Positions 1-6,000 of a stretch of 64,000 bases of DNA are shown here, piece by piece. The stretch lies in assembly GCA_026708565.1 (NCBI GenBank), contig JAPOUR010000032.1, positions 9,081 to 73,080 on the forward strand, read 5' to 3'. Source of the DNA: Candidatus Dadabacteria bacterium (GTDB lineage Bacteria; Desulfobacterota_D; UBA1144; Nemesobacterales; Mycalebacteriaceae). Under the pieces are notes generated by a model. That model saw only the letters and a program-made list of their open reading frames with translations, had not been told where the DNA came from and did no database searches. Positions within the stretch are counted from its first letter, which is position 1, and each line of letters opens with the position of its first letter. The translations under genes were made by a program, and so were the position numbers.

Positions 1-3000
1 TATGAAGCAAGCGCGAGCGGAGACAGTTCCATCTCTTTGGGTCATAGGGCAAAGGCAGGCGGGAATAGTTCCACTGCCTTGGGTCAGGCGGCTCAAGCGC
101 TGGATGTAAACACAACCGTTGTGGGTCAAGGAGCAAAAGCGGACAAAGCAAACTCTACAGCAATCGGACAGGCAGCTTATGTGAAGGGGCCGGATTCCAC
201 CTCCCTCGGTTACTTGGCAAATGCAAGCGGAGAAAGTTCAACGGCGCTTGGAGCAATGGCGCAGGCAAAAGGGCTTTTTTCAATGGCGGCGGGAACGGAA
301 ACAAACGCCGCCGGTGATTCCTCAACCGCGCTTGGGCAGGAGGCTCTGGCATTGAGCGACTCATCATCGGCATTGGGGCAAGAGGCGCGCGCAAACGGGT
401 ATGCGTCAACCGCAATCGGACATAAGGCACAGGCGACCGGGAGCAATTCTGCGGCATTCGGACAGAGTGCGGCCGCCAGAGGTGTTAGCACAACCGCGCT
501 GGGGCAGAGGGCATGGGCTGAGGGTGAAGAATCAACTGCGGTAGGTATGGATGCGCGGGCTATAGGTAATGAGTCAACTGCGATAGGTAAGGAAGCATGG
601 GCGAACATGAAGGCGTCAACCGCGCTTGGAGCGTATGCAAACGCCGCCGGAAATTCTTCTACCGCGCTTGGGCAGGAGGCTCTGGCATTGAGCGACTCAT
701 CATCGGCATTGGGGCAAGAGGCGCGCGCAAACGGGTATGCGTCAACCGCAATCGGACATAAGGCACAGGCGACCGGGAGCAATTCTGCGGCATTCGGACA
801 GAGTGCGGCCGCCAGAGGTGTTAGCACAACCGCGCTGGGGCAGATGGCACGGGCTGAGGGTGAAGACTCAACTGCGGTAGGTAAGGAAGCATGGGCGCAT
901 AAGAAGGCGTCAACGGCTCTTGGAGCGTATGCAAACGCCTCCAAAGATTCTTCAACCGCATTGGGACAGGGGGCGGAGGCGTTTGGCGTATCGTCATCGG
1001 CATTGGGGCATGCGGCGCGGGCGACCGGAGGCAATTCTGCGGCGGTTGGACAGGGGGCAAATGCGAGCGGGCATAACGCAACTGCATTGGGGCAAAAGGC
1101 ATGGGCGGCGGGTGAATCCTCAACGGCGGTGGGACAGACAACTTGGGCGCATATGAAAGCGTCAACCGCGCTTGGAGCGCATGCGAATGCCGCAGGTGAT
1201 TCTTCAACCGCGCTTGGGCAGGGGGCGTATGCAAAAGGCGATTCTTCGTCAGCATTGGGGCATCTGGCAAATGCCACCGGACTTGCGTCAACCGCAATCG
1301 GGCAGGATACACGGGCGAGCGGGGGCAACTCATCGGCATTTGGACAGGGGGCAAATGCAAGCGGTCATAACGCAACCGCATTGGGGCAAAAGGCGTGGGC
1401 TGCGGGTGAATCCTCAACGGCAGTGGGACAGATAACTTGGGCGCATAAAAAAGCATCAACTGCGCTTGGAGCGCATGCGAACGCCGCAGGTGATTCTTCA
1501 ACCGCGCTTGGGCAGGGGGCGTATGCAAAAGGCGATTCTTCGTCAGCATTGGGGCATCTGGCAAATGCCACCGGACTTGCGTCAACCGCAATCGGGCAGG
1601 ATACACGGGCGAGCGGGGGCAACTCATCGGCATTTGGACAGGGGGCACAAGCAATGGGACTTTCCTCAACTGCGGTCGGAATGGGCGCTTGGGCGCACAA
1701 GAGATCATCAACCGCTCTCGGAACGGGAGCGAATGCCGCCGGTGATTCTTCAACTGCTCTTGGAGCCAAAGCAGTTGCCAGTAAAGCAGGCACGGTTGCG
1801 GTTGGTTTTGAGGCAACGGCAAGAGGGGAAAAGTCAACGGCGTTGGGGCAGTCAGCAACCGCAAGCGGGGGAAAGTCAACGGCGCTGGGACAGGCAGCAA
1901 CGGCAAGCGGGCCACAGTCAACGGCGCTGGGACAGATAGCAACCGCAAGCGGAGAACAGTCAACAGCGTTGGGACAGATGTCAGCCGCAAGCGGAGAACA
2001 GTCAACAGCGTTGGGATGGATGGCTACGGGAAGTGCTCACATGGCAACGGCAATCGGAGCATGGTCGCGAGCGATTGAAAAGCACTCAACGGCTGTGGGT
2101 CAAGATTCAGTGGCATCCGGGCGGAATTCAACTGCTTTGGGACATGTGGCAAGGGCAAGCGGTCACAATTCCATTGCTTTGGGTCAGGGAGCACAAGCCA
2201 CCGGCACGGATGCAATAGCAATCGGGCGCGGTATAACAGCCGGAGACGACCAGATACAAATCGGTGACGCCTCTTTTGCCGATGTCAGAATCGGGAAATA
2301 CAACCTTGCCGATTTTGCAAGCGGTGGAGGGGGTTGTGGAAGCGCAATAGCAACCGGATTTCAATCGACTGCCTATTGTGAAAACGCCGTTGCGAGCGGA
2401 GACAATTCTGCGGCGTTTGGTTATGGAGCGACCGCAAACGCGCAGGGCGCAACGGCGCTGGGTCAGGCGGCGGTTGCCAACGGTGGGGCCTCAACGGCTT
2501 TGGGGCGGGGTTCGCGAGCGTCCGGTGAATCCTCAACAGCTGTGGGACATGGGGCGAGGGCAATGGATCAATTTTCAACATCTCTGGGATATCTTGCAAA
2601 GGCGCACGGTAGAAGGTCAACGGCTATTGGAACATGGGCGAGTGCGATCGGTATCAAAACAACATCTTTAGGGCACTTCGCACAGGCAAGCGGAGCCAAT
2701 TCAACATCTTTGGGGCAAGAAGCCCTGGCAAGCGGTGTAGCAACAACAGCAGTGGGGCAATACGCGCGGGCAAGCAGAGACAGGTCAACATCTTTGGGGC
2801 AGAAGGCACAGGCAAACAGAGTGCGCTCCACCGCGATAGGACAGGTGGCTCAAGCGTTGGGCAGAGACTCAACCGCCGTAGGACAGGGGGCGGAAGCAAC
2901 CCGCAACTCTACAACAGCAGTGGGGCAATACGCACGGGCAACCGGAGCCAATTCAACATCTTTGGGACGGGACGGACTGGCAAGCGGTGAAGACTCCACC

Positions 3001-6000
3001 GCGATAGGACAGGCGGCTCAAGCAACCGTAACAGCAACAGGAGCAATTGCGGTTGGCAAGGGGGCGCAAGCCACCGACACGGACGCAGTAGCAATCGGGC
3101 GCGGTATAACAGCCGGAGAGGACCAGATACAAATCGGTAACGCCTCTTTTGCCGATGTCAGAATCGGGAGATACAACCTTGCTGAGTTTTTAACCGATGG
3201 TAGCAGTTGTGAAAATGCAATTGCAACCGGATTTCAATCAACTGCTTGCGGAAGAGCCTTTGCAACCGGAGACAATTCTGCGGCGTTTGGTTATGAAGCA
3301 AACGCAAGCGGAGACAGTTCCACCGCTTTGGGGCATGGAGCAAGGGCAAGCGGGCAATACTCAACGGCGCTGGGACAGACAGCAAGGGCAAGCGGAGAAC
3401 AGTCAACAGCACTGGGATGGATGGCTATGGGAAATGCTCACAAAGCAACGGCAATCGGAGCATGGTCGCGAGCGACCAATAGGCACTCAACGGCTGTGGG
3501 TCAAGATTCATTTGCATCCGGGCGGAATTCAACATCTTTGGGACATGGGGCAAGGGCAAGCGGTCACAATTCCATCGTTTTAGGTCAGAGAGCGCAAGCC
3601 ACGGCAACGGGAGCCATTGCGGTCGGCGTGGGTTCGCAAGCCACCGACACGGATGCAATAGCAATTGGGCGCGGTATAACAGCCGGAGATGACCAGATAC
3701 AAATCGGTGACGCCTCTTTTGCCGATGTCAGAATCGGGAAATACAACCTTGCCGATTTTGCAAGCGGTGGAGGGGGTTGTGGAAGCGCAATAGCAACCGG
3801 ATTTCAATCGACTGCCTATTGTGAAAACGCCGTTGCGAGCGGAGACAATTCTGCGGCGTTTGGTTATGGAGCGACCGCAAACGCGCAGGGCGCAACGGCG
3901 CTGGGTCAGGCGGCGGTTGCCAACGGTGGGGCCTCAACGGCTTTGGGGCGGGGTTCGCGAGCGTCCGGTGAATCCTCAACAGCTGTGGGACATGGGGCGA
4001 GGGCAATGGATCAATTTTCAACATCTCTGGGATATCTTGCAAAGGCGCACGGTAGAAGGTCAACGGCTATTGGAACATGGGCGAGTGCGATCGGTATCAA
4101 AACAACATCTTTAGGGCACTTCGCACAGGCAAGCGGAGCCAATTCAACATCTTTGGGGCAAGAAGCCCTGGCAAGCGGTGTAGCAACAACAGCAGTGGGG
4201 CAATACGCGCGGGCAAGCAGAGACAGGTCAACATCTTTGGGGCAGAAGGCACAGGCAAACAGAGTGCGCTCCACCGCGATAGGACAGGTGGCTCAAGCGT
4301 TGGGCAGAGACTCAACCGCCGTAGGACAGGGGGCGGAAGCAACCCGCAACTCTACAACAGCAGTGGGGCAATACGCACGGGCAACCGGAGCCAATTCAAC
4401 ATCTTTGGGACGGGACGGACTGGCAAGCGGTGAAGACTCCACCGCGATAGGACAGGCGGCTCAAGCAACCGGTAGCGCCTCAACAGCAGTAGGGCAATAC
4501 GCACAGGCAACCGGTGAGGACTCCACCGCGACAGGACAGGCGGCTCAAGCGTTGGGCATATACTCAACCGCCTTAGGGCAGGGGGCGAAAGCAACCAAGA
4601 ATAACACAACGGCGGTGGGTCAGGGAGCCACGGCGACCGGGCTCAGGGCAACGGCGTTTGGACAGTCTGCCAATGCAAGCAGGGATGATACAACGGCAAT
4701 CGGGCGGATTGCAACGGCGCTGGGGGTCAGTTCAACGGCGGTGGGTCACAACACACGGGCAAGTGGAGACGGCGCAACGGCGGTAGGTCAGTTTGCGTAT
4801 GCGACTGCCAACGGCGCAACGGCGGTGGGACAGGGGACGAATGCCATAGGTGTAAGGTCAACCGTTGTCGGTCAGAGCGCGAAATCAACTCTTGGTAATG
4901 CAGTTGCCATCGGGCACGGAGCGCAAACGCTTGGTGCAAACTCATCGGTGGTAGGCAAGGGGGCTTCTGCGTCTGAGCGTGACAGCGTTGCCATTGGTCA
5001 CTTGGCTCGTGTAACCGCACTTGACGCCGTTGCAATTGGAGCGGACGCAATAGTGAACAAAGATGGCGGTATCGCCATAGGGCGACATGCGTTTGCCGGT
5101 TCTTTAACCGTGTATCCTGCTACCGGCGCAATCGCCATAGGACGGAGCGCGCGAGCAACATACAACGATGCAATAGCCATAGGTCGTGATGTAACCGCCG
5201 GTGAGAGCAGATACTCTCATGGGCAAATCCGCATTGGCAATGTAAATCAGTCCGATGTGCGGATTGGGGCTTATAACCTTTTTAACTTGTTGGGAGACCA
5301 GTTACCACAAGAGTCGCCTCCCCGTATCCCCGAACCGCCGCGCCCCCCGATTCAAAGCGAGGTTGATGGTGCTTCCGCTGGTGTCAGAGGAGCGGAGGCA
5401 AAGGCGAAAAGTCCGATTGCTCAGGCTGGCGGTATAGAAGTAGATCATTCCCGCCGCTCCACAAATTCCGAGGGGACTATACAAGTGGGCGTAAACGGGT
5501 CGGCTTACGGCTACGGCGCAACAGCGGCAACTAACTCAGTGGCTATAGGAGCGGATGCATCGGCAGAAGGAGAAGGCGGAATTGCCATCGGGCACGGTGT
5601 TGTTGTAGGCGGAGAGAACATTGCAATAGGCAGAAACCATGTGCAGGGGGTGCGTATCGGCGCATACGACATCGCCGCACTAAACGCCGCAATCGGCACC
5701 TACACCGACACCGCAAGCCACAGCGAAACCGCAAGCGCCCATGCGCGTATCAATAAAAACCGCTACGACATCGGTAAATCACGGGAGGAATACCGCAAGG
5801 GTATCGCCATGGCAATGGCTCAACAATTTCTGCCCGTTGAGAAAGACTCACGGGCAAGGTTCGGCATGACAAGTTCCGGCTACCGGGGCGAATTCGGCAT
5901 CGGAGTAAGCGCGGGTGTCCGCCTGACCGACCGGATACAATTCCATCTGAGCGGGGCGGCCGATACGGGGTTTGATGAGAAGGCGTTCAAAACGGGGTTT

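Follow-up and report, generated by a model that had tools for sequence, protein, structure and literature searches.

BadA of Bartonella henselae, a trimeric autotransporter adhesin, carries domain arrays that differ between strains through multiplication, deletion and recombination; before long reads became available, two repeats of four domains each had gone unnoticed in it (PMC8859334). For surface proteins more generally, variation in repeat number correlates with the DNA identity between the repeats (PMC9704523). Here we describe a related case in a 64,000-nucleotide stretch of Candidatus Dadabacteria DNA (contig JAPOUR010000032.1; the whole stretch is called the window, and coordinates refer to it unless another scaffold is named). 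The gene in question is predicted to encode a trimeric-autotransporter-type (type Vc) adhesin; its 3′ 6018 nt occupy positions 1–6018, where frame 1 stays open throughout, up to the stop at 6018. Within this gene, two nearly identical 0.84-kb cores recur in frame 1443 bp apart, each preceded by a flank that differs from its counterpart by about 10%. The adhesin gene, the features mapped inside it and its right-hand neighbours up to mnmA all lie on the plus strand.

BadA is the closest described case. Both adhesins are giant and modular, belong to the same secretion type and contain multi-domain blocks repeated within the gene. Strains of one species differ in BadA by multiplication, deletion and reshuffling of such blocks, with better conservation at the N and C termini; the counterpart here is a set of alleles of differing length and module order. 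Repeats that are overlooked or broken without long reads find their parallel in short-read scaffolds gapped at this locus. The repeated units themselves differ: those of BadA are neck/stalk (coiled-coil) domains, whereas those of the Dadabacteria adhesin are YadA-type head (β-roll) segments joined by an unusual connector, with no Pfam HIM match. In addition, no flanking pseudogene copies were seen in the window, and the organism is an uncultured Dadabacteria metagenome-assembled genome (MAG) rather than a pathogen. Periscope proteins offer a second comparison, as surface-anchored fibres with repeats well over 50 residues long and of very high DNA identity, which short reads cannot resolve (PMC9704523). 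The core described here, with 279 residues, a period of 481 residues and 99.5–100% DNA identity, falls in the same range. The Periscope class was established on rod-like, mostly monomeric proteins in which many identical globular domains form an array, whereas here only two identical copies sit in a presumably trimeric β-roll fibre; variation in repeat number within a species is a Periscope feature. With YadA, Hia, AtaA and BpaC the adhesin shares 14-residue head repeats (BpaC, E = 1e-20) and an anchor of one helix plus four strands (Hia, AtaA, YadA), and it departs from them in an anchor that scores below the Pfam cut-off, the lack of a long coiled-coil stalk between heads and the rare connector.

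The repeated stretch lies entirely within frame 1 of the single open reading frame (ORF) at 1–6018. Core copy 1 (2192–3028) encodes a type-A connector (…DAIAIGRGITAGDDQIQIGDASFADVRIGKYNLADF…C…C) and, after it, a series of YadA-head repeats of 14 residues each, and core copy 2 (3635–4471) matches it at 833 of 837 bases (99.5%, gapped alignment). The cores are thus read as paralogous protein modules, in each of which a neck-like connector precedes a β-roll head of YadA type. From 2248 to 3028 the two are perfectly identical (781 bp, equal to 3691–4471 at an offset of 1443), and in an ungapped comparison at that offset the mismatches at 2204, 2223 and 2247 lie directly upstream of the perfect part. 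The offset equals 3 × 481, that is, 481 codons, so that the repeat stays in frame. The initial annotation had placed the copies at 2196–3030 and 3639–4470 with a period of 1443 bp and ~99% identity, which agrees with the alignment to within a few bases.

Outside the cores the resemblance weakens in steps. X1 (1987–2191), the head repeats directly before copy 1, and its paralogue X2 (3388–3592), before copy 2, are identical at 185 of 205 positions (90.2%, gapped alignment), at an offset of 1401 rather than 1443. The register is moved from the one offset to the other by a 42-bp insertion (3593–3634) that is unique to copy 2 and encodes 14 residues, one head repeat (ATGAIAVGVGSQAT). The similarity of these flanks had been noticed earlier, as 240 bp at 85%; the similarity holds, while extent and identity are corrected to 205 bp and 90%, shifted by one 42-bp unit. 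The basic 42-bp (14-aa) head repeat forms a tandem array at 1813–2016 (4.9 copies, 87% matches). Further out, 1819–1942 and 3262–3385 share 75% identity at an offset of 1443 (gapped alignment). On the 3′ side, the sequences from 3029 and from 4472 onwards show 37% identity and no in-register alignment. The cores are separated by 608 bp of different sequence, including a spacer (3029–3387) that comprises a type-B connector (…VRIGRYNLAEFLTDGSSCENAIATGFQSTAC…) and short head repeats and is unrelated in register to what follows copy 2. A plain tandem duplication of a 1443-bp unit was considered and ruled out, given that the copies have just 837 bp of each 1443-bp period in common and that the sequences 3′ of the cores differ. 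The single tandem segmental duplication of 1.07 kb proposed in the initial annotation fails on the same points and on the differing ages of flank and core; what survives of that proposal is a long, near-perfect direct repeat, in frame and perfect over 781 bp.

The contrast between flank and core indicates, as judged from these alignments, two events of very different age. At the 10% divergence of the flank, 781 consecutive matches have a probability of 0.9^781, or ~2e-36 by our own arithmetic, so the perfect identity is not due to chance. Of the codon differences between X1 and X2, 5 are synonymous and 11 nonsynonymous (nonsynonymous divergence dN 0.09, synonymous divergence dS 0.15). Both map to a single X region in the adhesin allele of a conspecific genome (L011, described below) at 90–92%; since they differ from each other by 10%, duplication of the flank dates to about the time when the alleles split. 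The cores, by comparison, are 99.5–100% identical within the genome and only 73–88% identical to any module of that allele. The step from 90% to 100% identity falls between 2192 and 2248, inside a motif (DAIAIGRGITAGDDQIQIG) common to all connectors. The pattern is most simply explained by an old duplication of the module and, much more recently, gene conversion or unequal recombination across ~0.8 kb, a history to which we assign a probability of roughly 70%. A module and its upstream flank would have been duplicated long ago, and much later homologous recombination between the paralogues would have overwritten one copy with the other over ~0.8 kb, either by gene conversion or by unequal exchange and subsequent resolution. 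The converted tract would begin in the shared connector motif and end where the old homology ends, and the gene would evolve by concerted evolution together with module shuffling.

Several observations weigh against this history and against the copy number on which it builds. Canonical gene conversion requires homology on both sides of the tract. The 3′ edge of the core passes straight from 100% identity to non-homology, which implies either that the tract ran to the end of the old homology or that the history had more than two steps. The count of two copies comes from the assembled contig, not from reads; the window contig may have been built from short reads, in which case two copies would be the minimum traversal by the assembler, not a measurement. 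No independent contig containing the middle part, 2258–4416, was found: a protein search with window 2890–3780 returned nothing above 47% identity, and an exact 49-nt DNA scan of Joint Genome Institute (JGI) metagenomes gave 0 matches. A contig scan with the core protein likewise returned only relatives at 35–47% (Roseovarius, Henriciella and others).

The same final arrangement could have arisen by another route, in which one recent duplicative event copied just the 0.84-kb core beside a pre-existing X2, with no older core there, through template switching or unequal exchange between short connector motifs. The abrupt 3′ boundary followed by unrelated sequence is what such an event would leave, the 5′ boundary lies within a motif common to all connectors and offers possible microhomology, and the differing module order between alleles implies that modules do move. 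It would need two independent junctions, however, each falling exactly on a repeat-unit boundary and in frame, whereas conversion can draw, at no extra cost, on the older duplication of neighbouring sequence that X1 and X2 attest at the corresponding position. This single-transfer route is a close rival, with the same outcome as conversion and indistinguishable from it in one genome, and we regard it as unlikely.

How the repeat behaves in assembly was evident from an independent scaffold of the same organism (L001), found through an mnmA protein look-up, which is 100% identical to the window over 12.9 kb and reaches 5.8 kb further left. It contains two 100-N gaps, one replacing window 716–789, inside a tandem repeat of 336-bp period (302–917; 1.8 copies, 93% matches), and the other replacing 2258–4416. 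Its left contig stops at 2257, 10 bases past the last mismatch of the core, and its right contig resumes at 4417, exactly 55 bases before the core end. From this start we infer an edge of the de Bruijn graph at k = 55, an interpretation of the assembler that is our own. Another contig (L002) begins at 4350, inside copy 2, and a further scaffold (L012) is likewise gapped within its adhesin. Short-read assemblers cannot cross the core repeat, as the initial annotation had anticipated in calling such repeats a classic cause of assembly error. The breaks in L001 at the core edges show that, in the reads, two different sequences lead into the core and two lead out of it, evidence in favour of a real repeat.

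These data bear directly on whether the repeat is an assembly artefact, such that the true core copy number differs (one copy with a strain mixture, or three or more) or that the two copies were made identical by consensus or polishing. The source is a MAG, a perfect 781-bp repeat is longer than typical paired-end inserts, and L001 left the core region unresolved. Window and L001 also disagree at 10 sites, all within a second tandem repeat of 294-bp period (1018–1654; 2.2 copies, 93% matches), at 1245–1275 and 1539–1569, which suggests that consensus in the repeats of this gene is fragile. The differences form the same 5-base haplotype (T,G,A,C,C versus C,A,G,T,T) in both 294-bp units, and could reflect concerted change between populations or a consensus artefact. 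Against an artefact at the core, L001 would break at both core ends only if the reads held two different sequences to the left of the core and two to its right, a spacer that adjoins the core at either end already amounts to a tandem arrangement, and copies diverged by 10% would have assembled through at k = 55. Moreover, near-identical module repeats occur in the same gene of two long-read-looking assemblies (L011 and L015), so that a repeat of the core type is typical of the locus. An artefact is quite improbable on balance, and the core repeat is taken as real, an ordinary example of the well-known behaviour of giant adhesin genes.

Relatives with the same gene order were collected through members of the mnmA protein cluster, and flank values are given as DNA identity to the window; genomes with flanks at 97–98.5% (L011, L015 and L014) count as conspecific. 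L011, a 1.2-Mb contig, has flanks at 98.5% and an adhesin of 2220 aa; L015, whose contig name is of hifiasm type, has flanks at 98.4% and an adhesin of 2235 aa. In L012 (flanks 94.7%) the adhesin exceeds 3000 aa, since its reading frame stays open over 2600 codons until a scaffold gap and over 407 more. The allele lengths at this locus are therefore 2220, 2235, 2360 (the window allele, completed as described below) and >3000 aa. In L014 (flanks 96.9%) there is no adhesin: murI is followed directly by tRNA-Pro/mnmA, with a palindrome resembling repetitive extragenic palindromic (REP) elements at the empty site. Genomes with 97% identical flanks are thus polymorphic for the presence of the entire gene (empty site L014 6600–6630). 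REP-like palindromes (GTCATTCCTTGC…GACAAGGAATGAC) flank the adhesin gene on both sides (within window 1–6120 and L001 4490–4714), and a single copy is present at the empty site of L014.

Between the window and L011 the adhesin is 93–95% identical at the C-terminal end and 73–80% identical in the module region, and the N-terminal protein sequences start differently. The connectors run -AABA-- in the window allele, as against BBABAB- in both L011 and L015. L011 has a tandem module repeat of its own (period 1095 bp, ~1.5 kb, 96–97% identity, perfect patches up to 337 bp), and L015 carries the same repeat plus one 42-bp unit (period 1137 bp); apart from this, no more than 15 substitutions separate the two over the first 5.8 kb. 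The conspecific modules, at 73–80%, are too diverged from the window for copies of its core unit to be counted in them. A second variable block, a small head plus linker between a proline-rich segment and the anchor (window ~5430–5690; L011 5830–6400 compared with L015), differs strongly even between the near-identical L011 and L015 and shows no match between window and L011. Near-identical module repeats, unit-level insertions and deletions, module reshuffling and presence/absence are natural properties of this adhesin locus. Within the genome the paralogous copies are far more alike than orthologous segments are between genomes, and identity steps sharply at the tract edge, with the same mosaic of perfect patches in L011; this is concerted evolution.

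Programmed variation of the adhesin through silent cassettes, a site-specific invertase or a diversity-generating retroelement would account for hypervariability of the locus between conspecific genomes, and is highly improbable: there is no sign of silent cassettes and no further core copy in the 64-kb window (the repeat search covered direct repeats only, and no search was aimed at inverted repeats or at genes for recombinases or reverse transcriptases), a second adhesin at 15695–17512 has just 35–55% protein similarity, the scanned neighbours (three downstream, and the syntenic upstream genes in L001) are housekeeping genes, and direct in-frame repeats are explained by general homologous recombination.

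If conversion or unequal recombination did act here, its product has consequences of its own. Two perfect 781-bp copies 1443 bp apart would form an efficient substrate for RecA-type recombination, which would delete or add a block of 481 aa (~34 β-roll turns) with the frame kept, and so shorten or lengthen the surface fibre. RecA-mediated expansion and contraction at the core repeat, as put forward in the initial annotation, is plausible and finds indirect support in the differing lengths and module orders of related alleles, and copy-number switching is what we infer from the geometry. Its extension to antigenic variation is speculation in the case of an uncultured, probably sponge-associated bacterium.

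That the repeat lies inside an adhesin gene, as had been proposed, is borne out by both the head repeats and the modelled C-terminus. The full gene comprises 7083 nt (2360 aa), of which the first 1065 nt lie upstream of the window and were taken from L001 4714–5778. The N-terminus (MRKSLTQTFLTAVFLVVGAVSQA) reads as a signal peptide, with basic residues, a hydrophobic core and an A-x-A-like end, as judged by eye. A Pfam scan returned YadA_head (PF05658) only, in 48 stretches (E = 8e-250). In a sequence search of the PDB the head repeats matched solved adhesin heads, with BpaC 7o23 at E = 1e-20 and 3s6l (Hep_Hag family; BoaA head) at E = 2e-13, and further matches included EibD, 3wp8 (a trimeric autotransporter adhesin) and 1p9h (deposited as 'Invasin').

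The C-terminal anchor (5671–6006) was modelled with AlphaFold as a stalk helix (5671–5820) followed by four β-strands (5854–6006); in the model of the last 152 residues the helix occupies residues 38–87 and the predicted local distance difference test (pLDDT) score is ~80–88. In a Foldseek search the five best PDB matches were Hia 2gr7 (E = 1.3e-5), AtaA 9vnj, Hia 3emo, 2gr8 and YadA 2lme, with E-values from 1e-5 to 3e-3 and a probability of 1.00. By sequence the anchor is divergent: Pfam YadA_anchor (PF03895) is sub-threshold (E = 0.05, 14.2 bits against a cut-off of 22.7), and a PDB sequence search with the C-terminus gave no relevant match. It does resemble the anchor of the second adhesin, P0148 (BLASTP E = 1e-6). 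In that protein, a small YadA-like adhesin of 605 aa (15695–17512; MCY4047246.1), the anchor is clearly recognised by Pfam and the connector motif recurs; its gene is missing from L014, in which the antiporter-like gene comes directly after the AMP-binding gene. The canonical neck/HIM domain (PF05662) had no match in the Pfam scan of the large adhesin; many accepted family members in the protein-search match list also lack it, so its absence does not disqualify the protein from the class. The YadA-head repeats together with the Hia/AtaA/YadA-like anchor fold place the protein as a predicted trimeric-autotransporter-type adhesin, the trimer being presumed from monomer models.

Head segments are separated, in place of the canonical neck, by a connector, AIAIGR…QI.IG……VRIG.Y.L, present at seven sites in the gene (including 2194–2400, 3044–3250 and 3637–3843), and four of the seven then carry two cysteines ~13–18 residues apart. 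The motif is rare, with 14 clusters at E ≤ 0.001 among 1.84 billion representative proteins, and half of the six connector-bearing proteins retrieved share the unusual divergent anchor sequence of the adhesin. A single module was modelled by AlphaFold as a β-solenoid (pLDDT 85) with a low-confidence linker at the connector; a fold search with this model gave no significant match (best E = 0.23, assorted β-helices) and was uninformative on the connector. A broader proposal combines these features. Heads chained through a rare, lineage-restricted, cysteine-bearing connector, without necks or coiled-coil stalks, would constitute an undescribed variant of the trimeric autotransporter adhesins and a fast-evolving, strain-specific determinant of host colonisation in sponge-associated Dadabacteria, with arrays homogenised within a genome and reshuffled between genomes, and with the 1443-bp repeat as an active length-switching site. 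We put this forward tentatively, and as a whole it is doubtful.

Just 3′ of the adhesin stop, a hairpin followed by a U-run (6041–6072) is likely the intrinsic terminator of the gene; it emerged from RNA folding (−25.6 kcal/mol, z −4.3) and was not listed by a consensus terminator scan. The right-hand neighbours are tRNA-Pro(CGG) at 6160–6233, one of three tRNAs that were the only Rfam hits in the window, and mnmA at 6256–7350. The mechanically called mnmA ORF of 416 aa (6100–7350) overruns the tRNA, and the real start is the ATG at 6256, giving 364 aa as in public records. Downstream of the adhesin gene lie mnmA, a radical-SAM enzyme and a phosphoesterase, and upstream, in L001, electron transfer flavoprotein (ETF) subunits and an Asp/Glu racemase; all are housekeeping genes.

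Seven window proteins are exact matches to NCBI records between MCY4047238.1 and MCY4047286.1, described as 'MAG: … [Candidatus Dadabacteria bacterium]', on a 102-kb contig. The sample names (ROBB21…, TARA…) and two ankyrin-repeat genes in the window suggest, by our own reasoning, a marine, probably sponge-associated organism. The ankyrin-repeat genes lie at 48242–51940, a region of low GC content (0.475) that also encodes an AAA_21/AbiEii-like ATPase; the second ankyrin-repeat protein is fused to a PD-(D/E)XK nuclease-like domain. Proteins with ankyrin repeats would be in keeping with life in association with a host. The lowest GC content of the window (0.40–0.48) is found at 28760–31772, where an N6/N4 DNA methylase fused to an HNH nuclease, a DUF5677 protein and an unannotated ORF make up what is probably a mobile or defence island.

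These findings carry a practical message for giant adhesin genes. The length and copy number of this gene cannot be trusted without long reads, and the same probably holds for most giant adhesin genes in MAGs; in a public scaffold of the same organism, an N-gap replaces 2.2 kb of the adhesin. The locus between murI and tRNA-Pro/mnmA is the most variable spot in genomes that are otherwise 97–98.5% identical, and for that reason it could reasonably serve to track strains and is a candidate factor in host interaction. Any link of the adhesin to host interaction or immune evasion is speculation. The current understanding of such genes is unchanged. The case adds a bacterium of a candidate phylum, probably host-associated, to the organisms whose adhesins evolve by module duplication, conversion and shuffling, and its modest extra value lies in a hypervariable locus and a rare connector in Dadabacteria.

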